Below are positions 1-60,193 of a stretch of DNA of 64,000 nucleotides, in pieces (position 1 is the stretch's first letter; each line of letters begins with the position of its first letter). Origin of the DNA: a virus (Duplodnaviria; Heunggongvirae; Uroviricota; Caudoviricetes). The translations under genes and the position numbers were made by a program. The DNA is taken from the IMG/VR virus record IMGVR_UViG_3300032007_000057, positions 1 to 64,000 of that record. The stretch is one strand, 5' to 3'. Under the pieces are notes generated by a model that saw nothing but the letters and a program-made list of their open reading frames with translations, made no database searches and was not told the DNA's origin.

Positions 1-514
1 TTTTTTTAATAAACTCTCCATTCTCATCTTTCTTACGACTAATATCATACGGACAAGTTTTATCTAAACAAGCTGAACAGGATTTCATATGTTTAAGACC
101 ACTAATAAGATATTGTCTAATATTATGACTAAAATCTAGTAATCCTTCAAAGCTTTTATCATCATATTCAAATCTAGCAGCTTTTCTATATCTTTCATCA
201 ACTTTCTTGAGATCTTTATTTAAACTTTCGAGTTCAGCTTCAATTTTTTGTTTATACTCTTTATGTGATTTTTTAGCTTGCCAGAGTCTCCAAGTTAAAA
301 TCTTAATCTTCTTTTCTTCAGGAGTATCTTCTGGAGTAGGTATAAGATTCTCTTTCTCATACCAGTTAAACTTATTATCTTTAAGTCTGTCCAATTCTTC
401 TCTAAGCATCTTATTCTCATTAATTAAAGATAAACCCCATCCTAATACTGTTTTAATTACATTAATGGGCTCTTCTTTTTTTAACTCCTCAAGATTCAAT
501 TCTTTAACTGGCAT
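1..514 (-). CDS. Hypothetical coiled-coil protein, 3' portion runs off the window start (>=171 aa). C-terminal CSACLDKTCPY Cys cluster.
   Basis: Uninterrupted minus-strand frame from ATG at 514 to the window edge, checked codon by codon. Co-oriented with neighbouring genes. The plus-strand ORF 207..575 is its antisense shadow. Confidence 0.5.
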   Translation of the reverse strand, partial: MPVKELNLEELKKEEPINVIKTVLGWGLSLINENKMLREELDRLKDNKFNWYEKENLIPTPEDTPEEKKIKILTWRLWQAKKSHKEYKQKIEAELESLNKDLKKVDERYRKAARFEYDDKSFEGLLDFSHNIRQYLISGLKHMKSCSACLDKTCPYDISRKKDENGEFIKK

Positions 515-8517: not shown

Positions 8518-9201
8518 TTAATTATTGTCTTCAGAAGGAGCTTCTTCAGTTCCATTGTCTTCATCAATTTCAATATCAGCAGCTTCAAGATCATTCCAAT
8601 CCTGAGCATCAAGATACTGAGAAATATCACTGTCGGGGTCAGTTGGATCATAACCCATATTCACCGCATAAACAATTTCATTATTGATAGTCATCTTCTC
8701 TGTAGCTACTGAGAAACCTTCATTAAGTCTGCTAAGAATTCCAGTTCTAAAATCATTCATCATCATACTAATGTCTGAGAAGATTTCTCCAATAAATCTA
8801 GCCCTAACTCTATAATACTTAGCAAGAAGTTTTGCTTTAGCTACTTCTTTACCAAACTCTTCATTCCAAGTATCATTAGTTTCTGGATTACACTTTGCTA
8901 CTGCAAAAAACTTATCTGGAAACTCTTCAAGGAGTTTCTTATCGATAAGGTCAGCAACAAAATTACAATCACCATTCCTATGAACTGCTGTGCAATTATA
9001 AACAAAATTAACAAAATCACGATTGCAATTTGTCATAAATGCACACACTACACCTTTGTCCTTATTAATACGATACTCAATCATAGTTTCTGCTCCTTCT
9101 TTGTCTGTTATTTTTGCCCTTATTAGGGTCTGCTCGTTTTGACGTATTCTTGTGATAACCCTTATCCTTTTTCTTTTTGGTGTAATCCCAAGAATCCTCA
9201 T
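8518..9201 (-). CDS. Hypothetical protein with acidic C-terminal tail (227 aa)
   Basis: ORF. Confidence 0.5.
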   Translation of the reverse strand: MRILGITPKRKRIRVITRIRQNEQTLIRAKITDKEGAETMIEYRINKDKGVVCAFMTNCNRDFVNFVYNCTAVHRNGDCNFVADLIDKKLLEEFPDKFFAVAKCNPETNDTWNEEFGKEVAKAKLLAKYYRVRARFIGEIFSDISMMMNDFRTGILSRLNEGFSVATEKMTINNEIVYAVNMGYDPTDPDSDISQYLDAQDWNDLEAADIEIDEDNGTEEAPSEDNN

Positions 9202-9274
9202 CCAGCTTAAACTTCTTAAGTTCTTTTCCCATACCTAATTGAATCTACTTCGCTCCTTTTTATAAGATTATTTA

Positions 9275-10270
9275 CTACCAACCTATATCATTAGGATCAT
9301 CAACTTTAATCCCAAAGATATCACAAAAATTAGAAATACGATCATCAACTGCAAATTCTTGCATTTTATTATAATTAATTCTAAACTTAGTTAAATCTAA
9401 TGTACCATTAGTAGGAATAGTAATACAATCTAACTTACCTTCTTTACCCATTGTACCAGATCGAACTAAATCTGTCAAGCGTCTTTGTGTATCTGAATCA
9501 AATTGACCTATATCAATTTCTTCCAAGTCAAATCTATAGCCTCTATCCATTACTCTAAAGGTACTTCCATAAATTGCATTATATACCAACATAGATTTAA
9601 CTGATCTTGGCAGTCTATCTTGGGCATAGTTTTCTTTATTCCAAGAACTTGGAATAGCACAATAAACTGTACCTGTTTTTAACTGCTCAACATATCTACC
9701 TCTATAATCATCAATCTTAGTGGTAAGCTCTTCTTTACTGATTCCTTTCTTAAGGATATGCTCAATAAAATCATTTAACATATCTCTGCTAAATTGAGGA
9801 TAATCAGATCTTACAACTTCTATACCACTAATACTGATTTTATCCAAAGGCTTTCCTTCTTTGGAAACTAACCAAATAGCATACTTCTTTTTGATTTCCA
9901 GAAACAAAGCTCTTCTAATAACAAGTTCCTGTTTAAAATTAAAGTTAAACTTTTTAGCCGAAGATTCTGTAGGAGATGTATTATGCATATTAAGAAGTTC
10001 ATGAATCATTACATTATTAATATACTGTGCTACAGATTCATTCAATTCAATAACTTTATCTATCTTTTCCTTGTCAGAAATTTCATCATAATCTTTTCCA
10101 TAAATTGCTTTCAATGCATCGCCATATTTAGTAAAAATTGAATCTGTATTATGAACTAATATGTCATTTGCAAAAAAACAATGATCATCATCTGGCATTT
10201 CAATATCATATACATCAATAGGTTCTTCTGGAGTAATCACTTCTATTGATTTAACACTCTCTATCTTCAT
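9275..10270 (-). CDS. DNA polymerase B C-terminal fragment, preceded by a split-intein C-half (IntC, about 41 aa)
   Basis: Starts MKIESVKS...VYDIEMPDDDHCFFANDILVHN|TDSIF. That is intein blocks F/G ending in HN, then the +1 Thr, which is the TDS half of pol motif C (YGD|TDS). A KKKYA (KKRY) motif lies further downstream. Confidence 0.8.
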   Translation of the reverse strand: MKIESVKSIEVITPEEPIDVYDIEMPDDDHCFFANDILVHNTDSIFTKYGDALKAIYGKDYDEISDKEKIDKVIELNESVAQYINNVMIHELLNMHNTSPTESSAKKFNFNFKQELVIRRALFLEIKKKYAIWLVSKEGKPLDKISISGIEVVRSDYPQFSRDMLNDFIEHILKKGISKEELTTKIDDYRGRYVEQLKTGTVYCAIPSSWNKENYAQDRLPRSVKSMLVYNAIYGSTFRVMDRGYRFDLEEIDIGQFDSDTQRRLTDLVRSGTMGKEGKLDCITIPTNGTLDLTKFRINYNKMQEFAVDDRISNFCDIFGIKVDDPNDIGW

Positions 10271-10293
10271 TTTCCTTCACCACCCATATAATG

Positions 10294-10322
10294 ATTCTAT
10301 CAGACTCGGCATACTTTGTCAA
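10294..10322 (-). promoter_or_regulatory. Sigma70-like promoter (TTGACA-17-TAGAAT) for the polymerase C-fragment gene
   Basis: Minus-strand TTGACA, 17 nt, TAGAAT, then SD GGTGAAGGAAAATG. The -35 element abuts the degenerate terminal CRISPR repeat. Confidence 0.55.
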
Positions 10323-10324
10323 TA

Positions 10325-10950
10325 ATTACACAATATTCTTATTTGTAGGTCCTGTATAGTATGGGCAATACAATACTAATCAGGTATCAATTATACGATA
10401 TTCTTATTTGTAAGTCCACATGGTAAAACAATTCCACTACTCCAAAAGCTCATAGTTATACGATACCCTTATTTATAAGTAACGTATAGTGAGTATACCA
10501 GAACTGAAAGAGCACGTCAAGTTATACGATACTCTTTATTTGTAAGTGTCGTATAGTGCTAAAATACTCATGTTTAAAATGTCTGTTATACGATACCCTT
10601 ATTTGTAAGTACCGTATAGTAACATCATTAAATTTCATTTTTACATCACTGTTATACGATACCCTTATTTGTAAGTACCGTATAGTATGTGATGGACCAT
10701 GCAGGAAGAAGATAGCGTTATACGATACCCTTATTTGTAAGTACCGTATAGTGATGATGAGGTAATAGCAGTAATAGTTAGAGTTATACGATACCCTTAT
10801 TTGTAAGTACCGTATAGTCACCCAAATCAGCATACTCTTTAATATCATGTTATACGATACCCTTATTTGTAAGTACCGTATAGTTCTTTTTTATCGTCTG
10901 TTGTATCTTCTTTTGTTATACGATACCCTTATTTGTAAGTACCGTATAGT
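10325..10950 (-). CRISPR. CRISPR array. 36-nt repeat GTTATACGATACCCTTATTTGTAAGTACCGTATAGT (plus-strand reading), 10 units, 27-30-nt spacers. Six perfect units (starts 10585, 10651, 10717, 10783, 10849, 10915). Four progressively degenerate units at the distal end (starts about 10325, 10390, 10455, 10521).
   Basis: Read directly. Units are regularly spaced at 66 nt. All nine spacers between them are unique. Repeat ends are palindromic (TATACG...CGTATA). Degeneration increases away from the cas gene, so the leader is on the cas12 side. Confidence 0.9.
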
Positions 10951-11161
10951 ATCCTATACGCAAACTCTTACAAATACTGAGTTTATTCAATATTCAGTTG
11001 TAAAAAACAGCATTTTCCATACGTAAAAACAAATAAAAAGTATCGTATCCGAATAAATCCGGAGGCAGTTAATTTTCATTAACTTTATTTAAATTCACAT
11101 CGCTGATTCTGATGATCTTATTTAAATGGGTTTGCCAAACTTACCCAAATACATCCCCTGT
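10951..11161 (-). promoter_or_regulatory. CRISPR leader / candidate tracrRNA region
   Basis: AT-rich 210-nt region between the array and the cas12 stop. Contains repeat-like segments in inverted orientation at about 11024-11050 and 10968-10977. See findings. Confidence 0.4.
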
Positions 11162-12646
11162 TTATTTAGGGAATTTAGAATACTTTAGACCTTCAATTAC
11201 GTCTTTAACTCTCATCCTAACTGGATGAAATGGATGGTATCCAACCCAACTAAAATCTGGAATTGCTTTTCTCATAATACCCATAGCGCCATTTACATCA
11301 GCATTCACCAACTTTCCAACCCCAGAAGAAAACAATCCTCTGTGAATTCTTTTACCAAAGTTAGCCTCATCTCTAGTTTCAGGGTCTTCTTTAGTAGCCA
11401 AGGGAGCATTTCTAAGATGATCTGTTTTACTAGTATAAGACTCTTCAACAATCTCGAAGCTTATGCCCCTCATTTTACACTTATATTCGAGTTTGTCAAG
11501 TAGTTTTTTAAAAGGAAAGTTAACAATAATTTGATTATTTTTATGCCCAGTATTGATCTTCTGCTTCATATCTTTATTCCAACCGCAAATAACTCTACAA
11601 ATATTATAATGGAGGCAATATCTAACAATATACTTAGTATATGCATCAACGATATAATTTATACGATTAATATGATTCTTTGTCATTGCTTCAATTCTCT
11701 TAGTAGTATACTGCTTAGGTCTTTTCTTCCCATTTTCATCAGTAATAACTTCAATCTTATGTTTAAGTTTATCTACCATTAAATGATAAAATCTAATTTT
11801 AGATTTCAAAGCATTACCATCAAGGATAACTGGATTAAGTTTATCATCACTAGTAATTATAGTACAAAAATTTCTAATACCCAAATCAATACTAAGATAT
11901 CGTTTATTATCAAGTTTAGGAACCGATTCATTATACGTATAAATTATTTCAATCTTAAAATATCCTTTTTTAGGAATTATCCTAACTTGGTCAATTCTTT
12001 TTCCTTTTACATACTCCGAATTATGTGGCAATTTTTGAAGTGGGATATAAATGCTTTTATTATATCCATCCGTTCCCCTCGGCTTAGGAAACACAAGACT
12101 TCTAGTTTTTGAGTTAATTTTAATAGAAGTACCAGAAAAGTATAATGGGCACAGATCTCCTTTTTTATAAAAACCGGGCTTTCTTGGCATTCCTTTATAT
12201 TTTTCCGGGTGCCTACTCCAATCCCCAAGGGATCTTCCATATGATTTTAAATTTTTAGATAGTAATGTTCTAATTACCTCTGTAGTTGCATCTCTACCTA
12301 CAAGATTTTTAAGTAGTTCCCAATTACTTTTACCCTCAAGATTTTTAGTATAATACTCACCGTTCTCATCTTGTTCACTGGCATATCTCCTCAAACTCAT
12401 TACTTTAAAAAAATCATCGACAGGTTTTTCAAAACCAACGTATTCGTCTGGAAACCAAGGAAAAGACTTACCAGTTTCTTTTTTATATTGTTCTCTAACC
12501 GGGTCATAAGCTTCTTTAAACTCATAAGCATAGTACAGTGTCTGATTATACAAATTCTTAGCAACAGTACATGCTTCTACAAGCCAATCATATACTTCTT
12601 CATTTCCAGGTCTTCTATAAAAGTTAAAACTAGCAGTAAGTTGCAT
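11162..12646 (-). CDS. cas12: Miniature type V CRISPR effector (Cas12f/TnpB-like RuvC nuclease), 494 aa
   Basis: TnpB-type N-terminus (..LYNQTLYYAYE). RuvC-I LSIDLGIRNF, RuvC-II IVEESYTSKTD, RuvC-III NADVNGAMGI. No CxxC...CxxC zinc finger between RuvC-II and RuvC-III. SD GAGGGGG before the ATG. Directly flanked by the CRISPR array. Confidence 0.85.
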   Translation of the reverse strand: MQLTASFNFYRRPGNEEVYDWLVEACTVAKNLYNQTLYYAYEFKEAYDPVREQYKKETGKSFPWFPDEYVGFEKPVDDFFKVMSLRRYASEQDENGEYYTKNLEGKSNWELLKNLVGRDATTEVIRTLLSKNLKSYGRSLGDWSRHPEKYKGMPRKPGFYKKGDLCPLYFSGTSIKINSKTRSLVFPKPRGTDGYNKSIYIPLQKLPHNSEYVKGKRIDQVRIIPKKGYFKIEIIYTYNESVPKLDNKRYLSIDLGIRNFCTIITSDDKLNPVILDGNALKSKIRFYHLMVDKLKHKIEVITDENGKKRPKQYTTKRIEAMTKNHINRINYIVDAYTKYIVRYCLHYNICRVICGWNKDMKQKINTGHKNNQIIVNFPFKKLLDKLEYKCKMRGISFEIVEESYTSKTDHLRNAPLATKEDPETRDEANFGKRIHRGLFSSGVGKLVNADVNGAMGIMRKAIPDFSWVGYHPFHPVRMRVKDVIEGLKYSKFPK

Positions 12647-12708
12647 TGCCTTGGTTTCCCCCTCAATTGTCTTTTGTTATAACATAACTATACTATATAA
12701 AACATTTA

Positions 12709-13818
12709 TCAAGAGGCTTTATTAAAAACCTTATATCCATTACGAGCTGTCTTATCTTCACATAAGATAATAAATTTAGGATAGCTATTACTATTAAAAT
12801 AAGTTGCTCTCTTACAGTGCTTACACGATAAGCACTGAATCATCACTGGTGCCTTTTTCCTTATATGGTAGTCCTGAAATTGTGGGCAAAAATTAACGTT
12901 TGATGTAACAATCGACCTTGGAAATTCGTTTCTAAAAAATGTCCACTGTCTTGTTAGATCTAATCCATTAAAATTTTTATTTTCTAATATATTCTTAAAC
13001 TTCTTTTGTTCCATATATTCTATAATGTCAGTCTCTTTTAAAGCATCTAATCCCTCATCAGTTAGATTGTCATAAAACCTATCTACATACCATTTAACTC
13101 CGTTTGTAACTCGAAAAGCGTATTCATAAGATCTATCACAAACTAGGTCGCTCTCACCACTTCTATGAATCCAATTGCATGGAATACTGCCGCTTAAGTA
13201 TGCCTGTTTTAATTCGTCATATGTAGATTCTCTATTTACTTTAGATAAGTCATACTCTACAACATAAAAATTATTAGTATCTATAGATTTAATTAAATCT
13301 AGTTTTACATCATCTACTCCATGGGTTACTGTTACTTCAAGATACACGCTACATGGAGAGCTATTAAATCCAAACATTTCCTCATAACTAACATCATAGC
13401 ATGTCAAATCGGGTCTAATATATTTCCCATTAGCACAATTTAAATTTTTTTCAAGATAACCCTTATTAAATTTATAAAAATTTGATTCTTTAATCCTAAT
13501 ATATGATGTGCCCATACTAAGCGTATTAGGATTTATAATATTACCATTCCAATCAATATCTAATTCAGGCATCCTACATAGGCCTGTTTCCATAATAATC
13601 TTTTTCATGCCTAAATGTAAATTAGTCTCTCCATGAACATAAACTGAAGCTGGACATTTACTATTCGGTAAATGTGAAAAATGATGACCAACAATATTAC
13701 CTTTTTTAGCTACTAAAGGCTCCCCGCATATAGGGCAGATATAATTATGCAACCCAGACACTACTTCAGAAATATTCTTAATGCTACCGTCTATCAAACA
13801 ATATTCTAACTGAGCCAC
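12709..13818 (-). CDS. CoiA-like nuclease-family protein (N-terminal Cys/His zinc finger)
   Basis: CPICGEPLVAKKGNIVGHHFSHLPNSKC matches the CoiA-family N-terminal C..C...HHFAH..C signature. 369 aa, co-oriented and 62 nt upstream of cas12. Confidence 0.55.
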   Translation of the reverse strand: MAQLEYCLIDGSIKNISEVVSGLHNYICPICGEPLVAKKGNIVGHHFSHLPNSKCPASVYVHGETNLHLGMKKIIMETGLCRMPELDIDWNGNIINPNTLSMGTSYIRIKESNFYKFNKGYLEKNLNCANGKYIRPDLTCYDVSYEEMFGFNSSPCSVYLEVTVTHGVDDVKLDLIKSIDTNNFYVVEYDLSKVNRESTYDELKQAYLSGSIPCNWIHRSGESDLVCDRSYEYAFRVTNGVKWYVDRFYDNLTDEGLDALKETDIIEYMEQKKFKNILENKNFNGLDLTRQWTFFRNEFPRSIVTSNVNFCPQFQDYHIRKKAPVMIQCLSCKHCKRATYFNSNSYPKFIILCEDKTARNGYKVFNKAS

Positions 13819-13870
13819 AGCATATACCCTCTTTTCATTTATAAACTCTAGTTTATAATATATCTAATTA

Positions 13871-14581
13871 TTAAATTTTCTCCTTAGGGCAATCCTTAGT
13901 CCTATGCTTTTCAGTGCATTTTCCAAACCAGCACTTAGGACCACAACCAATAATCAACAAAGGAAACTGATTCTGGAAGATAATATAGATCCTATCAGCC
14001 AATTCTCTAATACCACTTTGAGCTCTCATACACATTCGCAATTCCATAAAGTGCCTAAGCTCTCTTAGATTCATAGTCATAACCAAAGAAGTCTGAGTAG
14101 CATTAGGAAGAATCTCTCTAGCATCTTCTTTAGGAATTCCATCTTCAATATATGCATTATACAAATCAAATGTATCCTTAAGATGCTGTTCAAACAAAGC
14201 CTGTGCATGAGGATTATTTTTAATTGATTCTGGGATAGTAAACTCTTCAGGTCGCATCGTAGTATATCTTTGACTTCTCTGAGAATAAGAAGCAATCCTA
14301 TGACGAACAAGCTGATGGCTAACACTTCTACTAATACCTTCAATAAAAAAGGTAAAATTAGCATGTTCAAGTGGAGATTCATGACCATTTTCCAGAAGCA
14401 TTTTTACCATCTTGTCTTGATACTCTTTATTTAAACACTTCTCTTTCAATTTGTCAAGAGTCAAATCTGAATAACATGTGGCAGCAGCTAAAGTAATTAC
14501 AAATTCAGGATCCTCAGTATTACTAATCAAAGTTACATTCATAATCGTCATCATCCCTTCTGATATCATATTTAAAGTCAT
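13871..14581 (-). CDS. thyX: Flavin-dependent thymidylate synthase ThyX
   Basis: ThyX signature RHRIASYSQRSQRY (RHR-x7-S...R). Start may be an internal Met, because the ORF overlaps the upstream gene by 59 nt. Confidence 0.85.
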   Translation of the reverse strand: MTLNMISEGMMTIMNVTLISNTEDPEFVITLAAATCYSDLTLDKLKEKCLNKEYQDKMVKMLLENGHESPLEHANFTFFIEGISRSVSHQLVRHRIASYSQRSQRYTTMRPEEFTIPESIKNNPHAQALFEQHLKDTFDLYNAYIEDGIPKEDAREILPNATQTSLVMTMNLRELRHFMELRMCMRAQSGIRELADRIYIIFQNQFPLLIIGCGPKCWFGKCTEKHRTKDCPKEKI

Positions 14582-14954
14582 TACCTAGGTAATCACCATA
14601 ACTATCATCAAATTCATCAGTTTCTAGCAAAAACTTATCTGATCTAAAATAAACTTCATCTTTAATGCGTTCTTGTTTATCTTCAATAAAAGAGCACAAA
14701 TATGGGTCATCATCATTAAAATGTCTTACAATTGATTCTAGGATATAATATTGTTTTCTTTGTGAATCATTCATACAATCAATACAAACATCTTCTTCAA
14801 AATCTTTTCCAATATCAGATTCATATAATTTAGTAGCCAGTTCAGCAATACTTTCTACAGTTTTCTTATTAAGATCTGTATGTTTTTGAAGTGCATTATC
14901 ATCAAACTTAGCATATTCATTAAGAACATCTTTTTTAGAAATCATCATTATCAC
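14523..14954 (-). CDS. Hypothetical acidic protein (143 aa)
   Basis: ORF. Confidence 0.45.
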   Translation of the reverse strand: MIMMISKKDVLNEYAKFDDNALQKHTDLNKKTVESIAELATKLYESDIGKDFEEDVCIDCMNDSQRKQYYILESIVRHFNDDDPYLCSFIEDKQERIKDEVYFRSDKFLLETDEFDDSYGDYLGNDFKYDIRRDDDDYECNFD

Positions 14955-15615
14955 CTCTGCTCATTTGTGAAAAAACATCAGCCATCCCATCATCATAATG
15001 ACCTTCCAAAAGGTCAATAGCTCTATCAACAGCTTTTTGATCTTTAATATCTCTACTAACTTCAGTTAATACTGCACAAGCTTTTTGAATTATTTCATCA
15101 TCATATTGATGAGAAGTTATTTCGTGGAAATATTTATTTGATCTACTAACAAATTTAATCAGTGTATTCTCATTAAACTTTTTAGATTTAATTTTAGTAA
15201 CTGGATCAATAAGGCTTTTATAAACTTTAATAAAAAATTCTTTATCAATAGGGCCTTCTACAATAGGTTCTATAGGTTTATTAAAAGTACCATCTTTCTT
15301 TTTCTGCTCAATAATCTGCTCTTCAGTATGATTCTCTAGAATATACTGAATTCTAGCTTCAAGTCTTTTTCTAAGAGTAGGATCTTTAGGAACATTTTCC
15401 TGAATAGCTCTAAGAATACAAATCTCTTTAATTTGCTTAGGTAAGTACTTTTTATCTTCAGGCATATTTGGAAGTGTTTCTGGATTCTGAAGATATTCAT
15501 TTCCTTTAGCAGTCATAGCTCTAATAACTGGTCCTTGGAGTTTAGTAGAGGTTACCTGGGCAATCTGATTAAATTTTCTATAGTGTGACAATACATTACC
15601 TTGTGTTACTTGCAT
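14935..15615 (-). CDS. Hypothetical protein (226 aa)
   Basis: ORF. Confidence 0.45.
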   Translation of the reverse strand: MQVTQGNVLSHYRKFNQIAQVTSTKLQGPVIRAMTAKGNEYLQNPETLPNMPEDKKYLPKQIKEICILRAIQENVPKDPTLRKRLEARIQYILENHTEEQIIEQKKKDGTFNKPIEPIVEGPIDKEFFIKVYKSLIDPVTKIKSKKFNENTLIKFVSRSNKYFHEITSHQYDDEIIQKACAVLTEVSRDIKDQKAVDRAIDLLEGHYDDGMADVFSQMSRGDNDDF

Positions 15616-15941
15616 TCACATTCCCTGCCTTTTAAAATGATAGACATATTGTCATAAGCAGAATCCAGAATTAATCCCAAATCATGTATATATGCAGCTA
15701 TACATTCTTCAAAAGCTTTATAGATACTAACTTCTTTTTTACGTTGATCAGATAATTTAAAAAAATTATCCAGTTCAGTTTGATCAAGATTTTTAGGATT
15801 CTCAAGAAATCTATTAGCATAATCCACAATATCTTGTATCAATTCTTTTGGGAGATGATCTCTAGTAGTTATAGAAGATTCATTATCTGAATCATAATTA
15901 CAATATACCCATTCATCAATAACGTCATCTCTGGTTATCAA
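15606..15941 (-). CDS. Hypothetical protein (111 aa)
   Basis: ORF. Confidence 0.4.
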   Translation of the reverse strand: MITRDDVIDEWVYCNYDSDNESSITTRDHLPKELIQDIVDYANRFLENPKNLDQTELDNFFKLSDQRKKEVSIYKAFEECIAAYIHDLGLILDSAYDNMSIILKGRECECK

Positions 15942-16104
15942 TATAAGTATCTCCTTCTAATATCCTCATTTACCCAATTCTTTCTAAACCAAGTATCATC
16001 ATCTAAATGAACCTTATCATATTCACACAGCTTATTCCAAATAGATTGGATAATCAACAGCTCTTTCTCAGTCTTACATGGCATAAAATCAAATAGTAAT
16101 TGTG

Positions 16105-16485
16105 TCATCGTTCTGTAAGGGGTCGTTCTGTATAAAAGTTAGAAGTATTTTCTGATTTAATAACTCTAACTGCATCATCATAAGTTTTATCTTTAAAGTA
16201 TTTCTTATATTTTTCCATTTTCTGTTCAAGTTCACCAGGTCTAAGTCTAACTTCTTTTTGATTAACAAATACCTTAGGCTTAAGAGTAGCTCTATCAACT
16301 ACAATAATATATGATGGAATTTTATCGCTAGGAAGTTTCTGAATAGCTTCTTTCAAAGCTTCATAATGTGCTTTTACTCCAAATTCAGAATATGGTTTAT
16401 AGATATCCTCAGCAATTCTGCTGTCCATTCCAAAATACATAACATCAAAATGACCTGCACCAGTAACTACTTTTGTTTCAGACAT
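16105..16485 (-). CDS. Hypothetical protein (126 aa)
   Basis: ORF. The 16089..16298 ORF is an alternative frame of the same region. Confidence 0.45.
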   Translation of the reverse strand: MSETKVVTGAGHFDVMYFGMDSRIAEDIYKPYSEFGVKAHYEALKEAIQKLPSDKIPSYIIVVDRATLKPKVFVNQKEVRLRPGELEQKMEKYKKYFKDKTYDDAVRVIKSENTSNFYTERPLTER

Positions 16486-16552
16486 TTAATCATTGCTCCT
16501 TTCAATTTTATATAAGGAGTATATCAGAAAATCAAAGCCATGTCAATATAAA

Positions 16553-16592
16553 AAATCTCTGAGATCAAGAGACCTCAGAGATTTGTTTATTT
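16553..16592 (-). terminator. Rho-independent terminator
   Basis: Minus strand: AAATCTCTGAGgtctcttgatCTCAGAGATTT, an 11-bp stem, then TTTTTATATT. Confidence 0.6.
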
Positions 16593-17191
16593 TCATTAGC
16601 ATCTTCTTTTTTAGTGGTTGCTTTTTTTCTTTTAGCCTTTGTTACAGGAGCTGCTAATGGTTCTGGTGCTGATTTCATTTTCATTGCTAATTCTTCCATA
16701 GTAGGTAATGGCTTTTTAGGCATCTTAGGCTTCTTAGGAGCTTGTCTATCTAAGGCAGCCATTTCAGCTTCCAATTGTTTAACTTGTTCGTCAATACCTA
16801 CTACCTCAGGAAACATTTCTTCACTAGATTTAGTTCTAGAGATTCCCTTTGGAAGTTTTTCTTCTTCTTTTTTAATAGCATCTTTTTGAGATGTCCAGGT
16901 AGGATCGAAAGGATTACTATTCTTAGAAGTAATAGCTCTGACACCAGAAGTAAGTTTTTCTACTGGCTTAGGTGACTCCTCCTCAATACTAAATGATGAG
17001 AAATCTTCTACTGGTTCATCCTTAACACTAAGTGTATTAAAATCTAATGGAGATGTAGTAGTAGCTTCAGCTAAAAACTGTTTAAACCTTTTATTCATCA
17101 GATCAACTTTTTTAGCCAATTTCATCTGATTAGTAGCTATTACTTTCATAAGCTCCATTATATTTTTTGACACTGAGTTCATCAAAATCAC
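16565..17191 (-). CDS. Hypothetical Lys-rich protein (208 aa)
   Basis: ORF. Confidence 0.45.
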   Translation of the reverse strand: MILMNSVSKNIMELMKVIATNQMKLAKKVDLMNKRFKQFLAEATTTSPLDFNTLSVKDEPVEDFSSFSIEEESPKPVEKLTSGVRAITSKNSNPFDPTWTSQKDAIKKEEEKLPKGISRTKSSEEMFPEVVGIDEQVKQLEAEMAALDRQAPKKPKMPKKPLPTMEELAMKMKSAPEPLAAPVTKAKRKKATTKKEDANENKQISEVS

Positions 17192-17523
17192 TCAGCTTTC
17201 TTTTTCTTAGGAGGTCTACCTCTTTTTCTCTTAACTGGAGCAGGAGGAGTAACCTCTTCCTTAACTTCTTCAACAACAGGTTTTTCAACAGGTTTTTCAA
17301 CAGGCTTTTCAGCAGGTTGTTCTTTGACCTCTTCAGTCTTAGTCTGCTTACTAGCAGCCTCTGCTTCAAAATCCTCTTTTGTTTTAATTGGAAACTTGTA
17401 AATATGTCCTTTATCATTAGTTCCAATCAAAACACTATCATTACTAAGCGGAGCTTCAGCCAAACCCATTCTTCTGCAAATTTCCAAAGCTTCAGCTCTG
17501 GTATATTTTTTCAAATTAGCCAA
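17188..17523 (-). CDS. Putative DNA-binding protein with PVEKP repeats and a C-terminal AT-hook (RGRPPKKKK)
   Basis: N-terminal helix-rich motif KKYTRAEALEICRRMGL. Three PVEKPVEKPVEKP repeats. GRP AT-hook core. Confidence 0.45.
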   Translation of the reverse strand: MANLKKYTRAEALEICRRMGLAEAPLSNDSVLIGTNDKGHIYKFPIKTKEDFEAEAASKQTKTEEVKEQPAEKPVEKPVEKPVVEEVKEEVTPPAPVKRKRGRPPKKKKAE

Positions 17524-17553
17524 TTAGATCTTCCTTTCTATTATAGTTTATTT

Positions 17554-18093
17554 TTATAAAGTCCAACTCTTTAAAGTATTGGCAAACCAAACTTCACCAT
17601 TTGGAGTAAACATGTCCACGATATCAACACTATTATTACCAGAAGTACCTGGCTCAATACCATTCATCCAAACAACTGAATCAGGCCAAGTAATCCCTTT
17701 AGAAGGATTCTTAATAATCACTTTGATATGCCTTGCTAAAGTACTTCTGTTATTAGTAATTGATGCATCTGTAGGCACATCCAAAATAGATATTGTAACC
17801 GAACCAGCTAATACTAAATAAAACATATCATAATTGTTAGTATTCAACTGGATAGAACCCATAGCGTTCTCATCTATAGAACACATTCTAAAGCCAGCAA
17901 GTCTATTAATATCTGCTAAGGTAGTAGGTCTGGCATCATTACTAACAGTTAAATTAGCCAATTCATGTGTATGATTTCTAAACTGACTAGCAGACACTTT
18001 CTCATTAAGTTCCTGAGTAATCTTTGTCTCCAATTGATTATGGTATCTCTGTAGGTTTTCAAAAGTTACTAAATTATCACTCATAATAATCAT
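17554..18093 (-). CDS. Hypothetical protein (179 aa)
   Basis: ORF immediately downstream of the polymerase N-fragment. Confidence 0.5.
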   Translation of the reverse strand: MIIMSDNLVTFENLQRYHNQLETKITQELNEKVSASQFRNHTHELANLTVSNDARPTTLADINRLAGFRMCSIDENAMGSIQLNTNNYDMFYLVLAGSVTISILDVPTDASITNNRSTLARHIKVIIKNPSKGITWPDSVVWMNGIEPGTSGNNSVDIVDMFTPNGEVWFANTLKSWTL

Positions 18094-18103
18094 TCTCCTT
18101 TCC

Positions 18104-20683
18104 TTATAAGGTGATTAGTTGGTCTGTTACAACTAATTCTGTTGGTTTAATTATAGTTTTAACATTATTTCTCATTACTACCAAACTATGATCTTCAGTT
18201 ACAGTGACTGTTTTTCCAGATTCAGTAGTAATCTTATACAGTTTCTTATTAGTTTTATGCTTCATCAGATACCTTGGGAAATAAAGTCTGTCATCATATC
18301 CAAGTACGCATTTATTAGGATTCTGAATATAATTTTTTCCGAGATAATGCCACACTTTATTATCCGAAGCACACATATCCCAAAGTTCTTTAATAGTTAT
18401 ATTACCTTTACCAGTTCTGATTAAAGAATCTCCAGTAACTGAATCTCCATAAATTACATTTGGTAGAGCTTGTTCTGATTGGTAATCCCAATCAAAAGGA
18501 ATATCTACATGGTCAAATTTATTAGATTTATTTTGAATCATTTGATTAATGCAATTATTAGCAACTACTGCGGCGATTTTAGCAATTTCTCTACCAGTAG
18601 AAGTAATACTTCTGGCAACCTCATAATCATACAATCTGAATCTAATATTGGACTGACCACCATAAAGAGAATTAGTAATGATCTTAACTGTTTTCTGCAT
18701 AGTATCATATCTGTCAACTAGCATTTGGTCTTTACCAATATTATCCTTCATAAGATCTTTATACTCTTTTCTCTTTTTAATGAGCATATCTACAATATCA
18801 TAAAGAACTGACTGCTTATCTTCATGCTTCTTAAAGATAGTGCCAATCTGGGTAATAATATACCCATTCTTAAGCATTCTTTCATGAAAACTTTTAGCAG
18901 ACAATTTATACAATCTCTCAATACCTTGAACTTTCAAATACAAACTTACATCTGTATTGGAATTAACAAATTCTTCTTTATTAAAGATATATTGTCTAGC
19001 AGTATCTGTATCAACTTTTCCTACATAGGTATCTGCACTAATGTTATATCTTGCCATAATGTATGGATAAAGAGAAGTAAGATCCAAATCACCCAACCAA
19101 TCATGTACACCGCTAATTGGTTCTCTAACATAAGCACCCGCAAACTTTTTCTTCTCAATTCCAGCTTTAACAATTTTGGCTACTTTATCTCTATCCATAA
19201 GATACTCATAAAGAATCCCATCACAAATATGTAGAGTAGTATAAATACTATCCCATGAGATATTAGCCAACTGGACTATACTAAAATTAAGGTCAATATA
19301 CTTCAACTTTTCATCCAATTTTCTTACAAGATGAACGTCGTTAATATTGTATGCAATAAACCTTTCAGGTTCTTCCCTAAAGATTTTATCCATGCCATCT
19401 TCAGTATCAAGTTTAGTAATACCCAACTCAATTTTAGAAATAGTTCCAAGCTTATAATTCTCTTTTTTACCAAGAGTTCTTTCCTTATAGCATCTTTGAT
19501 AATCAAGTGCTACAGAATAACCAATATGAGGAATACAATAAGTAACTTCCTCTTCATGTTTATTCATAACTGTTTTATATTCAATTTCAAAAGTTTTATT
19601 ATGAGCCAGTTTAGGATGTTCAATTCCTAAAAATTCTGCTCTATACTTAATATAAGGTAAATCAAATTCATCACTATTCCACCCAGATACTAGATCTGGA
19701 TCAAATTCTTTCAATAAACTGAAGAACTTAAGGAACATATCACTTTCTTTATCAAAGATTTCTACATTGAAAATACACTCATCTTTGTAATCAAGATATT
19801 CCTTAATTTGTTCAGTATTAATTTTAGCTTTGTTTAAATTATAGACCAAAGTATAATATTTGTCAGTATAATTATCATACAAAGTAATCAAGTTAACGGG
19901 AATAACTCTAGCTGACTTCTTAATATCAGCAAAGTCAATAATACCATATCCTTCTTGATACAACTCAATATCAACATAATTTACTCTAAGTTTATAATGA
20001 CCAAGATTATCTTTGTTTTCTTTTTTCCAAAGATAATTCTTATGAATAGCCAAATTAAAATCTACATTATAAATAGCTTTATAAGAAGATTCTGACTGAA
20101 TTTGTTCAATAATGTATTTTCTTTTACCATAATGTACCAGTTCACCTTTTAATCCTGCAATATCATGAACATCTAAATAATCATCTTTACCGGTATACAT
20201 CATAACCATATCATCAGTCTGAGTAATATATCTTTTATCACCAACTCTAATAACATATGCAAATTCCTTATTCACATAGTCTGAATAGAAGTTAAACAGC
20301 ATAGGCTTAGAATACCCATCAGTTGGCTTAGAATCTTCTTTCTCTTTAGAGCTATACAATTTATATTTACTCTTTTTATTAATAACTACATCAGTTTCTT
20401 TCTTTTTAGGTTTTTCTTCAATTTTGGGAAACACGGGTTTAACAGGAATATAATTAAACTTATAAATAGTGTTATACTTCTTATGTACTTTAGCAATATC
20501 TTCAATAGAATACTTATACGCATAAGGATTATTGAAAAGCTGATTCAATACAATAGATGTTTCAAAATCTTCTTCAGCTAAACTTAAAATAGAGGAAATC
20601 TTAAGAGACTTACATTCCTCTGGAAATGGCACATTTCCTTCAGTAGCTAACCATCTTATATATGTAGTTAGTGGTGAAGCCAT
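18104..20683 (-). CDS. DNA polymerase B N-terminal fragment (exonuclease plus pol motifs A and B) fused to a split-intein N-half (IntN, about 112 aa)
   Basis: Exo I VDIEL, motif A DLTSLYPYIM, motif B KIITNSLYGGQSN, then motif C cut at ...VIYGD|SVTGDSLIRTGKGNITIKELWD (intein block A with Ser1). Intein block B VTEDHSLVV follows. The ORF ends at the intein-half boundary. Confidence 0.85.
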   Translation of the reverse strand: MASPLTTYIRWLATEGNVPFPEECKSLKISSILSLAEEDFETSIVLNQLFNNPYAYKYSIEDIAKVHKKYNTIYKFNYIPVKPVFPKIEEKPKKKETDVVINKKSKYKLYSSKEKEDSKPTDGYSKPMLFNFYSDYVNKEFAYVIRVGDKRYITQTDDMVMMYTGKDDYLDVHDIAGLKGELVHYGKRKYIIEQIQSESSYKAIYNVDFNLAIHKNYLWKKENKDNLGHYKLRVNYVDIELYQEGYGIIDFADIKKSARVIPVNLITLYDNYTDKYYTLVYNLNKAKINTEQIKEYLDYKDECIFNVEIFDKESDMFLKFFSLLKEFDPDLVSGWNSDEFDLPYIKYRAEFLGIEHPKLAHNKTFEIEYKTVMNKHEEEVTYCIPHIGYSVALDYQRCYKERTLGKKENYKLGTISKIELGITKLDTEDGMDKIFREEPERFIAYNINDVHLVRKLDEKLKYIDLNFSIVQLANISWDSIYTTLHICDGILYEYLMDRDKVAKIVKAGIEKKKFAGAYVREPISGVHDWLGDLDLTSLYPYIMARYNISADTYVGKVDTDTARQYIFNKEEFVNSNTDVSLYLKVQGIERLYKLSAKSFHERMLKNGYIITQIGTIFKKHEDKQSVLYDIVDMLIKKRKEYKDLMKDNIGKDQMLVDRYDTMQKTVKIITNSLYGGQSNIRFRLYDYEVARSITSTGREIAKIAAVVANNCINQMIQNKSNKFDHVDIPFDWDYQSEQALPNVIYGDSVTGDSLIRTGKGNITIKELWDMCASDNKVWHYLGKNYIQNPNKCVLGYDDRLYFPRYLMKHKTNKKLYKITTESGKTVTVTEDHSLVVMRNNVKTIIKPTELVVTDQLITL

Positions 20684-31992: not shown

Positions 31993-32544
31993 GTACAAAA
32001 CTGACTCACTTATTTATATGATCTACATGACCCTAAGAATAGGTCATTTGTGTAGTACTTTCGATGACTTTAATGGGCGTAATATATGTACTACAATCCT
32101 TTTCCCCTTTCAATCAAAGGATGACAGTTTCTTACCACTTGCAGTAACCTGACAACTCTCCGGAATCCTCCACTCAACACTGCTCTAGCTTCTACTAAAG
32201 GTGGCTCAACATTAAGTTTCATAGGATAACTACTACCTCAAGTGTAGTAGGTTCTAACAGTTTTTATAAAGTCTATCCCTTAGCCAAGGTAATTTTTATT
32301 GAGGGTTACATTCCCTAATAGACTTCTATCCTACTTATGCCAAATGAAGACATTACAATCTTCTAAGTAGATCAGCCTTTATTTACTGTTATTTCCCAAG
32401 CACTGATTTGGGTGAAAGGATTTTAATTGTAACTCATTTTAGGTTACAATTTAATTTTTAATGGCTCCTCCTGGTGGTTACGCTCCACCGTATACGGTTT
32501 AACAGACCGCCACTCTACTATTGAGTTAAGGAGGAATTAGAACT

Positions 32545-32639
32545 GGCTCTGGAGCCCCGATTCGAACGAGGATGAGAAAGGAGGTCCCTTTACTTACTGA
32601 TCCAAAGTCAGCTGTTTTTCCAATTAAACTACTCCAGAG
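32545..32639 (-). ncRNA. Atypical tRNA-like element. 8-bp acceptor stem, long variable arm, anticodon loop CTTTGGA (UUG).
   Basis: Minus strand: CTCTGGAG...GTTT-AATTGGAA-AAAC...GCTGA-CTTTGGA-TCAGT...AAAGG-GACCT-CCTTT...CCTCGTTCGAATCGGGG...CTCCAGAG-CC. Canonical T-loop GTTCGAATC. Non-standard combination of features. Confidence 0.3.
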
Positions 32640-32782
32640 TTAAATTATCAAGGGTTCACTTAAGACTCGCACTTAAGATCTTCAGCTTTCACATTTTCCT
32701 AATTATGCTCTAGAAGCATACATAGAAAACACTACTCAGTGAGATTTTGCTATTTAAACTATGAACCATGTCCAACAAAGAT

Positions 32783-42539: not shown

Positions 42540-43295
42540 ATGTATTTGGAAAAAGCATTTTGTGAATTTGTAAAACCAAAACAGGTAAATTATGTATTGG
42601 ATGAAGTTTCTGATAAGAAAACCCTATTTGAAGCAGATGAAATAACAAAACGACTTCATAATAGTTATTTGAGATCTGAAATAGATAAAAGTACTTGGAC
42701 TAAAAAGAGTATAAGTGCTTATGACCTTACTGGTTGTATAAAGAAGCTATATTTTAGGTTAAGGGGTATTAGTCCATCTGATACTCCTAATTATCCATAT
42801 TCAAATATAATTTTTGGTATAGGCAATTCAGTACATCAAGCATTAGTGGATGCTATACAACCAGAAGAAGTTGAAGTTTCATTTAAGTCATATATTATTG
42901 GTTTTGAATTGAATATGAGATGTGATGCTATTTGCTATGGTAAGATATTGCATGAGTATAAAACTGTGGAAAAGATAGATGATGACACTGAATTAAAACC
43001 AGAGCATTTACAACAAGCAGTTATTTATGCATACTTATTGAATAAAATACATCATAGAAATATACAGTATATTCAGATTATATATGTTTCTAGAGGTAAA
43101 GTTAGCGTTAAAGTATTTAATGTTGAAGTTAATGAAGATATAATGAATAAGGTTGGTAATAGATTGAACAAGCAATTGAGAGAACTTAAAGATTGCTTAG
43201 ATCAATATAGAGTACCTTCTTTTGATAGTGAGTATTGTTCAAAAGATTGTAAGTTTTGTGAGTATGCAACTTTTTGTAGATGTTTAAGTAGTTAA
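42540..43295 (+). CDS. PD-(D/E)xK nuclease, RecB/Cas4-like, with C-terminal four-Cys cluster
   Basis: N-terminal Cys (LTGCIKK). D...EYK nuclease core (CDAICYGKILHEYK). QQAVIYAYLL (QxxxY). C-terminal C-x4-C-x2-C-x5-C (CSKDCKFCEYATFC). Confidence 0.5.
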   Translation: MYLEKAFCEFVKPKQVNYVLDEVSDKKTLFEADEITKRLHNSYLRSEIDKSTWTKKSISAYDLTGCIKKLYFRLRGISPSDTPNYPYSNIIFGIGNSVHQALVDAIQPEEVEVSFKSYIIGFELNMRCDAICYGKILHEYKTVEKIDDDTELKPEHLQQAVIYAYLLNKIHHRNIQYIQIIYVSRGKVSVKVFNVEVNEDIMNKVGNRLNKQLRELKDCLDQYRVPSFDSEYCSKDCKFCEYATFCRCLSS

Positions 43296-59470: not shown

Positions 59471-60193
59471 ATGTTTAATAAAAAATTATTGATGAAGAAC
59501 TTTGATGAGAAAGAAAAACCTCTAGTAGATCTTTCTAATTGGGCTTATAACACTTATACTAAAACATATAGTACCATGACTGAATTAGACCAAACAGGAA
59601 TTGATTATTTAAATTCCGTTAGAGGGACCGGTATGGGTAACATGTTTTATAATTGTAGTTCATTAACTTCATTAGATGTATCTAATTGGGATACTAGTAA
59701 TGTTACTAGTATGGACTATGTGTTTTCTGGGTGTCGTTCATTAACTTTATTAGACGTATCTAATTGGGATACTAGTAATGTTATGTATATGAGCTATATG
59801 TTTGATAATTGTAGTTCATTAACTACATTAGATGTTTCTAATTGGGATACTAGTAACGTAACTGATATGGAGAATATGTTTTATGATTGTAATTCATTAA
59901 CTTCATTAGATGTATCTAATTGGGATACTGGTAAGGTTAATCATATGATGGATATGTTCGAAGAGTGTAGTTCATTAGAATATTTAATTATTGGATCTCC
60001 TACTTTTAAATTTCGGATGATTGATTCTAGTTGTGGAAACCTTAACACTACTTGTAAGATTTTAGTTCCATCAGCATTACTTGATACATTTAAAACTGCC
60101 ACTAACTGGTCTTCAAGAGCCTCACAGTTTGATGCAATAGAAAACTATACAATAACTAGATCAAATGGTCAGGTTACTGTGACACCCAAATAG
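59471..60193 (+). CDS. DUF285-type repeat protein (four or more LDVSNWDTSNVT.M..MF..C.SLT repeats)
   Basis: Four consecutive roughly 26-aa repeats. Matches the Mycoplasma/Firmicutes DUF285 surface-protein repeat. Confidence 0.6.
   Translation: MFNKKLLMKNFDEKEKPLVDLSNWAYNTYTKTYSTMTELDQTGIDYLNSVRGTGMGNMFYNCSSLTSLDVSNWDTSNVTSMDYVFSGCRSLTLLDVSNWDTSNVMYMSYMFDNCSSLTTLDVSNWDTSNVTDMENMFYDCNSLTSLDVSNWDTGKVNHMMDMFEECSSLEYLIIGSPTFKFRMIDSSCGNLNTTCKILVPSALLDTFKTATNWSSRASQFDAIENYTITRSNGQVTVTPK

Follow-up and report, generated by a model that had tools for sequence, protein, structure and literature searches.

A probable tracrRNA whose anti-repeat tracks the CRISPR repeat, located between the gene of a TnpB-like Cas12 and the accompanying array of a huge rumen phage

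The DNA analysed here, called the window throughout, is the stretch of 64,000 nucleotides (nt) at positions 1 to 64,000 of the IMG/VR virus record IMGVR_UViG_3300032007_000057 (Caudoviricetes). It has a G+C content of 31%; the source is described as a huge rumen phage, and the related lineages come from rumen or gut-type metagenomes. Its minus strand carries cas12, a gene for a TnpB-family RNA-guided nuclease of 494 amino acids (aa), followed by a CRISPR (clusters of regularly interspaced short palindromic repeats) array whose repeats degenerate toward the low-coordinate end, about 55 nt separating the array end from the gene for the C-terminal piece of a DNA polymerase. Positions 10951-11161 are exactly the non-coding stretch from the cas12 stop codon (11162) to the first repeat (10950), and this interval probably encodes a trans-activating CRISPR RNA (tracrRNA), acting in trans and ending in an anti-repeat that we call AR1. 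This reading is supported because the position and strand of AR1, its covariation with the repeat, a series of compensated hairpins upstream and an effector with a TnpB/Cas12f fold all agree. No open reading frame (ORF) of at least 60 aa occurs in the predicted tracrRNA region, and an Rfam scan of 9000-14000 returned nothing relevant. A tracrRNA had been proposed here in an initial annotation of the window, and each sequence-level prediction of that proposal that could be checked (position, strand, covariation, upstream hairpins, and fold and size class of the effector) came out as expected.

The effector scores 112.9 bits against the NCBIfam guided_TnpB model (cut-off 100) and has a Pfam match to Cas12f1-like_TNB, while the NCBIfam CRISPR_Cas12f2 model gives 37.4 bits, below its cut-off of 450, and PADLOC reports weak partial matches to Cas12f and Cas12u3 (E 1e-9 to 1e-12). 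The D-E-D triad of the RuvC site (D254, E401/E402, D450) is invariant across the family alignment, which shows no CxxC zinc-finger cysteines. An AlphaFold model of the protein (pLDDT, a predicted score for the local distance difference test, 82; predicted template modelling score, pTM, 0.75) has its best Protein Data Bank (PDB) match in AsCas12f (8J12, template modelling (TM) score 0.56-0.58), then, nearly as good, in ISDra2 TnpB (8H1J), and then in ISFba1 TnpB, with LaTranC, Cas12p, Cas12m and others at lower scores; the nearest solved relatives all act with a scaffold RNA of 100-200 nt. The label "Cas12f-like" used initially is loose: it is the TnpB model of NCBI and not the Cas12f model whose cut-off is exceeded. 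No tnpA gene was found among the Pfam-annotated neighbours and no transposon ends were seen, and in this respect the locus does not resemble a TnpB mobile element; it occupies the same syntenic site in all relatives, and its array has variable spacers and no fixed guide.

AR1 lies 112 nt past the stop codon and 66 nt ahead of the first repeat and reads as a full-length, diverged, inverted copy of the 36-nt repeat. When both RNAs are taken from the minus strand, AR1 and the repeat are predicted to form a duplex of 26 pairs at -28.2 kcal/mol, so that the co-folding of leader and repeat suggested in the initial annotation yields the top duplex in the window. This duplex ranks first among about 16,900 segments of 50 nt covering the 64 kb in four strand combinations (background mean -9.6, standard deviation 2.9; runners-up -23.8, and -26.4 in another combination). 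Three G:U pairs, between GGG of the repeat and UUU, can form only with minus-strand RNAs, the opposite strands giving -20.4 kcal/mol. As DNA, the match is not discriminating: local alignment of AR1 scores 23 and unrelated sites in the window 20-24, and an ungapped search with 3 mismatches misses AR1 and recovers the array repeats only.

Part of this element had been described before. The reverse complement of plus-strand 11024-11050 does read GGATACGATACTTTTTATTTGTTTTTA, as the initial annotation had it, and we confirm that an anti-repeat lies in the leader, between array and cas12 and in the opposite orientation to the repeats, on the strand that makes its RNA complementary to the CRISPR RNA (crRNA). 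That segment is the 5' two-thirds of AR1, the true element being longer. Its similarity to the repeat is real, but the reported 17 of 21 positions against repeat positions 4-24 become 17 of 20 columns against repeat 4-22 (ATACGATACCCTTATTTGT), with one 1-nt gap. A second reported piece, cttacaaata, is present one base away from its given position, at 10967-10976 rather than 10968-10977, and is part of a longer match (I16 in the inverted-repeat listing; 19 nt, 84% complementary). The same listing pairs the segment at 11024-11050 with an older repeat variant (I4; 20 nt, 95% complementary). This variant, at 10522-10557, has a one-base insertion (..AAATAAAGAGTATCG..) and matches AR1 at 19 of 20 positions, more than the current consensus repeat does; at the positions of the insertion the consensus carries GGG, wobble-paired with UUU. 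AR1 may thus track an ancestral form of the repeat.

The direction of transcription can be read from spacer turnover. The identical Cas12 protein occurs on 18 public contigs, the longest of 288 kb. On L132, L134 and L136 it comes with the same leader and the same four distal spacers and without the five cas12-nearest spacers of the window, the differing block lying at window 10621-10914; L001-L003 have other spacers at the cas12-side end, and L137 has one leader-side spacer more than L004 (at 2224-2253). Spacers are therefore added at the cas12 side, which makes 10951-11161 the leader and gives cas12, leader and array one shared direction, and with this direction AR1 is complementary to the crRNA, as the anti-repeat of a tracrRNA must be. 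Differences among phages with identical Cas12 imply ongoing gain or loss of spacers. Neither cas1 nor cas2 was found among the 33 larger window ORFs scanned with Pfam, only a Cas4-like PD-(D/E)XK nuclease at 42540-43295(+). Searches with 36 spacers turned up no protospacer among GenBank phages, across all the fetched loci or within the window itself, and so pointed to no target and no protospacer- or target-adjacent motif (PAM/TAM); two spacer cores had no match in IMG/VR, nor did the repeats themselves.

The core of the significance of AR1 is the comparison of related loci, and not the match within the window. A search of 5.8 billion protein clusters placed four other clusters near the query, at 85, 80, 77 and 52% identity, beyond which matches drop to ordinary TnpBs of about 410 aa at 36% identity or less; the nearest relatives outside the clade are such TnpBs, at 33-40%. 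GenBank phages held no near-identical DNA and only protein matches below 40% identity, and IMG/VR, JGI metagenome contigs and GTDB genomes held no close relatives except L137, a contig of a rumen metagenome-assembled genome. The contigs of the relatives have the same gene order, with the array after the gene, and different repeats. Together they give six lineages with six repeat variants, three of 36 nt and palindromic (group 1, that of the window) and three of 28 nt (group 2), which make up two unrelated repeat families by one count and three by another. In each leader of 200-230 nt, the best partner of the repeat lies at nt 110-148 in the 36-nt group and at nt 160-185 in the 28-nt group. The cognate assignment of repeats to AR1 elements is the best of all 720 permutations (sum -160.1 kcal/mol, next -150.7), and swaps of AR1 and repeat within a group are also worse than the cognate pairs. 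Compensation reaches single bases: the repeat variants CAUUCUUCCG, CAUUCUCCCG and CUAUCCUCCG face CGGAAGAAUG, UGAGAGAAUG and CGGAGUAUUG, respectively, in the anti-repeat. Group 2 effectors share at least 90% identity, and over its first 177 nt the leader of this group is nearly invariant; the substitutions cluster in AR1, in the segment adjoining the first repeat (AR2) and in one hairpin, where they are compensatory. These fixed blocks alternating with variable blocks that face the repeat argue for selection on pairing, and the same mosaic argues against a decaying copy and against wholesale exchange of a module. We also considered AR1 as a direct, degenerate repeat, its palindromic arms matching both ways. 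Against this, the loop (ACAAATAA) and those arm bases that are asymmetric fit the inverted sense only, and group 2 repeats are not palindromic; we therefore rejected it.

AR2, the second repeat-complementary segment, can pair at -20.8 kcal/mol with nt 2-27 of the repeat. Together with the 5' half of the first repeat it makes a near-perfect hairpin, TATTTGTAAG..CGTATAG gat aCTATACG..CTTACAAATA. Every lineage has an equivalent, which is the second-best partner of the repeat and adjoins its first copy. In group 2 it meets the spacer-proximal 9 nt of the repeat through G:U pairs whose positions differ among lineages, and a palindrome at the junction recurs, altered along with the repeat (GGAAGAcATTCTTCC versus GGATGAcTATCC). 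The cognate assignment of AR2 also ranks first of 720, with a margin of only 0.9 kcal. AR2 could belong to a tracrRNA longer than the one proposed here, could fold in cis within the pre-crRNA, or could act as a signal at the leader-repeat junction.

Upstream of AR1, a consensus fold built from four distinct group 1 sequences arranges the roughly 110 nt from the stop codon to AR1 into five hairpins (S0-S4; Table 1) with 38 pairs, 93.4% of cells being paired. Twelve of these 38 pairs are compensated, a count that none of 500 shuffles reached (5.5 +/- 1.6), and controls with slid partners gave 0-3. S0 of L004 carries a synonymous change, TTC->TTT, with a matching change in the non-coding 3' arm, and S4 occurs as CCGGA, CCGUA or CCAUA. 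Group 2 also has a hairpin over the stop codon (GCGCTAATTATAGCGC), an equivalent of S3 with compensatory changes among L007, L186 and L188, and an equivalent of S4 at the same place (CCGGGUUUUAGACCCGG); the leader of L007 folds with z = -5.8. Despite unrelated sequence, the order of elements is common to both groups: stop-codon hairpin, long stem with inner hairpin, AAAG, hairpin, hairpin (G+C-rich in group 2) and anti-repeat. Descent of this scaffold from an omega-RNA, the guide RNA of TnpB, is no more than plausible; a covariance-model match at L021 is marginal (E 0.17).

Table 1. Elements of the cas12-array locus in the window, and array repeats of the six lineages
Feature	Position	Strand	Remarks
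Effector gene, TnpB-family Cas12-like RNA-guided nuclease, 494 aa	11162..12646	-	Assigned by NCBIfam and Pfam
Predicted tracrRNA, ~150-175 nt	11002..11175	-	Both ends inferred
Hairpin S0, over cas12 stop codon	11153..11172	-	Two pairs changed on both sides
Hairpin S1	11128..11145	-	3/5 pairs compensated (GC<->AU, CG<->UA)
Hairpin S2 (outer stem UUUAAAU/AUUUAAA) with inner stem S2b	11088..11126	-	Four pairs compensated; 92-96% of cells paired
Hairpin S3 (GUUAAU-GAAA-AUUAAC)	11068..11083	-	Consensus helices 5 and 6
Hairpin S4 (CCGGA...UUCGG), directly 5' of AR1	11049..11062	-	100% paired; two pairs compensated
AR1, main anti-repeat	11017..11049	-	Complementary to repeat nt 2-8 and 15-33; reads, 11049 to 11017, GATACGATACTTTTTATTTGTTTTTACGTATGG (GATACGATACUUUUUAUUUGUUUUUACGUAUGG)
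T-run (UUUUUU) within conserved TTTTTTACAAYTGAATAT motif	11002..11007	-	Kept in the window, L004, L006 and L005
AR2, second repeat-complementary segment	10953..10983	-	Abuts first repeat; contains cttacaaata
CRISPR array	10325..10950	-	10 repeats of 36 nt, 9 spacers of ~30 nt
Array repeat			Minus strand ACTATACGGTACTTACAAATAAGGGTATCGTATAAC; plus strand GTTATACGATACCCTTATTTGTAAGTACCGTATAGT
Repeat, window			ACTATACGGTAC..GGGTATCGTATAAC; 36 nt
Repeat, L004/L006/L137			CCTATACGATACCCTAAAATACAGGTATCGTAGGAC; 36 nt
Repeat, L005			CCTATACGATACCTTTAAATAAGAGGTACGTATAGC; 36 nt
Repeat, L007/L187			CATTCTTCCGTATACGTAGGGATGATCC; 28 nt
Repeat, L130/L186			CATTCTCCCGTGAGCGTGTGGATGATCC; 28 nt
Repeat, L188			CTATCCTCCGTGCGCGTGTGGATGATCC; 28 nt

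These features suggest the following model, which extends to a separate RNA molecule, its ends, its binding to and requirement by the protein, and the processing of pre-crRNA, all of which we infer. The RNA would be read from the minus strand, as are cas12 and the array, would start near or just upstream of the stop codon (~11175-11160), fold into S0-S4 and end after AR1, perhaps at the T-run of Table 1. In each crRNA unit, AR1 would base-pair with the portion derived from the repeat: the 5' half of AR1 would meet the repeat's 3' half, on the spacer side, and the 3' end of AR1 the repeat's 5' end. The 494-aa nuclease would then bind the resulting guide of two parts in the way that TnpB binds its one omega-RNA, and the RuvC site of the nuclease would cut DNA matching the spacer. 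The repeat:AR1 duplex may be the site at which pre-crRNA is cut, for example by host RNase III. A run of T6-7 after AR1 is conserved in group 1, and the T-run may be the 3' end of the tracrRNA, part of the promoter region of the array, or both. Inside cas12, at 11472-11499(-), about 310 nt before the stop codon, we also observed a sigma-70-like TTGACA-N16-TAAAAT, of which six lineages share both hexamers exactly and vary at a synonymous site between the two. The motif could serve as a promoter within the gene from which the downstream RNAs are made, or be a by-product of the invariant peptide LLDKLEYKCKM.

Several observations weigh against a tracrRNA. The repeat of the window's group folds on itself into a 12-bp hairpin at -12.8 kcal/mol and AR1 folds as well, so that pairing in trans gains little on balance in this group, -5.5 to -10 kcal/mol, with -5.8 for the 26-pair duplex; a self-folded repeat is what tracr-independent Cas12 enzymes use. 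In group 2 the repeats self-fold weakly (-4.5 to -6.5 kcal/mol) and the net gain is -11 to -12. The strand asymmetry from G:U pairs is mixed, the cas12 strand being favoured in 7 of 10 comparisons and group 2 AR1 pairing slightly better on the opposite strand. In stability, the scaffold of the window taken alone exceeds shuffles marginally and not significantly (z = -1.95), and the group 1 covariance model finds no homologue in group 2 and none beside about 90 TnpB genes. Promoter and terminator scans delimit no RNA: sigma-70-type promoters number 10 against a shuffled mean of 14.0, terminators 1 against 0.9 expected, and there is no canonical terminator at the T-run. The six lineages fall into two groups only and are phylogenetically related. 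A simple tracrRNA model leaves AR2 unexplained. Finally, Cas12r, a phage TnpB-like effector, is reported to need crRNA only.

Among the alternatives, the one that survives best, although we consider it unlikely, is that the anti-repeats act in cis: the 3' end of cas12, the leader and the array would form one long transcript in which AR1, AR2 or both pair with the first repeat, either as an omega-RNA-like single guide for the first spacer or to control transcription, processing or leader-side spacer integration of the array. Such a role would account for a segment that abuts the first repeat and folds with its 5' half, for a junction palindrome that changes with the repeat, and for the placement of all elements on one strand with no clear terminator; TranC systems, moreover, reportedly go back to a single guide RNA that was split. 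However, a cis structure would serve the first unit only, whereas an array can have as many as 10 units, with its turnover at this very end; the conserved T6-7 run parts AR1 from AR2 in group 1, and AR2 discriminates cognate from non-cognate repeats only marginally. This alternative is also compatible with AR1 acting in trans as well.

Next, and again improbable in our judgement, is an effector that works with crRNA alone, the palindromic repeat hairpin being its handle as in Cas12a, Cas12j and Cas12r. AR1 would then be no guide component; it would be a hairpin between cas12 and leader, of repeat ancestry, that serves as a terminator, an attenuator or a stability element. The self-folding of the repeat described above fits this, as does AR1 being itself a hairpin with a U-run 9 nt later, and Cas12r offers a tracr-free precedent among phage TnpB-like proteins. 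Yet a terminator has no reason to follow the repeat across unrelated families or to pair with its loop and arms, and the terminator scan reports nothing at AR1. The group 2 repeats, which self-fold weakly, show the strongest net gain in trans, the five covarying hairpins upstream are left unexplained, and the nearest folds all depend on a scaffold RNA. That AR1 is a chance similarity, or a functionless, decaying inverted copy left by array rearrangement, is very improbable and for practical purposes refuted by the comparative data, since the undistinguished DNA alignment score that favours it stands against the same position and orientation in six lineages with the cognate assignment best of 720, the top RNA duplex in the window, and variation concentrated in AR1 between fixed flanks.

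If the interval does encode a tracrRNA, the system appears, from its sequence, to join the tracrRNA-using, TnpB-like type V effectors already known (Cas12f, Cas12n, Cas12p, TranC), although the curated model does not make it a Cas12f. Type V systems have evolved from TnpB on many occasions, the array lying downstream of the gene. The published rule for tracrRNAs of compact type V systems describes this locus: between gene and array there is an anti-repeat whose pairing falls within the last 16 nt of the repeat, and about 120-200 nt of stem-loops lie upstream of it. Cas12f (AsCas12f, PDB 8J12 and 7WJU; Un1Cas12f1, 7C7L) is likewise a small RuvC nuclease of TnpB origin with its array downstream, and its tracrRNA of about 130-180 nt, between gene and array with the anti-repeat at the 3' end of a multi-hairpin scaffold, has the same layout. 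The effector studied here nevertheless shares only 14% sequence identity with AsCas12f, falls short of the Cas12f2 model and has no zinc-finger cysteines, and its anti-repeat spans nearly the whole of a 36-nt palindromic repeat. The short pseudoknot with the last 4-6 nt of the repeat that is described for Cas12 tracrRNAs was not found here.

TranC effectors have 300-600 aa, and their guide is interpreted as an omega-RNA, or right-end element RNA (reRNA), split into tracrRNA and crRNA. The present system resembles them (LaTranC, PDB 9JFQ) in being TnpB-sized and closer to TnpB than to classical Cas12, in its short arrays and in its absence of adaptation genes; TranC repeats are of 32-38 nt and some TranC systems are phage-borne. 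It fits the descriptive definition of TranC (494 aa, array, anti-repeat), a comparison made by description only, while LaTranC is a distant structural match (rank 37, TM 0.42). With the omega-RNA/reRNA of IS200/IS605 TnpB (ISDra2, 8H1J/8EXA; ISFba1, 8IAZ) it shares a protein recognized by the TnpB family model and a structured RNA, predicted here, that starts where the gene ends and continues downstream along its strand, the guide lying 3' of the scaffold. It differs in that the guide comes from a CRISPR array with spacer turnover and the scaffold ends in an anti-repeat and not in a guide, in its residence at one conserved site in a phage replication module as opposed to a multi-copy transposon, and in a scaffold model without a match beside the nearest TnpB genes.

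Cas12p, the "hacker" (PDB 9JFS), is a phage-borne miniature Cas12 that uses a long tracrRNA, of 185 nt, with a 37-nt repeat; it resembles the present effector in being compact and phage-borne, although it is larger (500-700 aa), has a thioredoxin-binding insertion and a zinc finger, and matches our model distantly, at a TM of 0.39. Cas12r, from Thermus Lalka phages, is a protein of 564 aa with a short array, for which small-RNA sequencing found crRNAs only and detected no tracrRNA. Its locus, too, has a phage TnpB-like nuclease gene followed directly by a short array with degenerate repeats and has no adaptation genes, whereas the locus described here adds a conserved, covarying anti-repeat and scaffold. 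On L033, at 529-2231, which comes from another metagenome, we noted an unrelated TnpB-like gene (29% identity to the query) with a six-repeat array about 220 nt downstream (repeat CCTGTATGTACATGACAAAATAGGGATAGAAAC), another independent TnpB-plus-array locus.

No new principle is revealed by a tracrRNA at this locus, an arrangement to be expected with a nuclease this small, because TnpB-like effectors with tracrRNAs have already been described in the four families named above. The tracrRNA would be the missing part for reconstituting a nuclease of 460-494 aa, a size sought for delivery-limited genome editing, and six natural repeat/anti-repeat pairs together with the covarying hairpins offer a basis for the design of a single-guide RNA and a natural map of tolerated changes. 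The locus adds the case of a huge rumen phage with an actively updated, TnpB-derived CRISPR system without adaptation genes, and it shows fast co-evolution of repeat and anti-repeat. Both are replaced in concert while the effector stays at least 90% identical (L007, L130, L188), and across the clade unrelated 28-nt and 36-nt repeats have been switched, against an identity of 85-95% that persists in the RuvC third of the protein. One conceivable explanation, which we hold to be less probable than either of the first two alternatives above, is that the phage retunes repeat, leader junction and anti-repeat to whatever CRISPR repeats its current host has, and thereby gets the adaptation machinery of the host to load the phage array; AR2 and the junction palindrome would then be the integration signal.

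The effector itself is a mosaic between the repeat groups. Compared with L007, the segment of cas12 at 11225-11585(-) (aa 354-473) stands out: between groups, the last third of the protein (RuvC II/III) has 85-95% identity, with a third-codon-position identity of 0.67-0.85, and the N-terminal two-thirds have 33-62% identity, with third positions at 0.53-0.75 (~0.55 over aa 1-186). Either recombination or a constraint at the RNA level that reaches into the 3' coding region could be responsible.

The locus also lies within a split gene. Two ORFs, at 18104-20683(-) and 9275-10270(-), encode the parts of a family-B DNA polymerase that a split intein joins. The first, of 859 aa, has an N-intein at its end (Pfam Intein_splicing 8-93/155); the second, of 331 aa, opens with a C-intein (..HCFFANDILVHN|T) and continues with the remainder of the polymerase. 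The intervening 7.8 kb (10271-18103) hold about 12 genes, including those for ThyX and a homing-type endonuclease as well as cas12 and the array, and the same gene order is found in L005, L007, L130 and L137. Within it, the slot between ThyX and cas12 is variable and rich in homing-type genes, with a CoiA_N/zinc-ribbon endonuclease in the window (12709-13818(-)) and an HNH_3 protein plus two small ORFs in L001 (6306-7723) and L006 (2870-4645); L006 also has a LAGLIDADG insertion inside ThyX.

Elsewhere, the window encodes eight tRNAs in total, among them a 94-nt tRNA with the anticodon CTA, which reads the TAG stop, at 32652-32745(-), beside a tRNA-Gln(TTG) of similar size at 32544-32638(-). 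The CTA tRNA suggests recoding of TAG, as in some gut and rumen megaphages, and ORFs called elsewhere in the window with the standard code may be truncated. At 59642-59977(+), 4.3 tandem copies of a 78-nt coding unit lie inside a 240-aa ORF that matches BspA-type leucine-rich repeats and DUF285, which points to a repeat protein of cell-surface type in the neighbourhood of phage replication genes.

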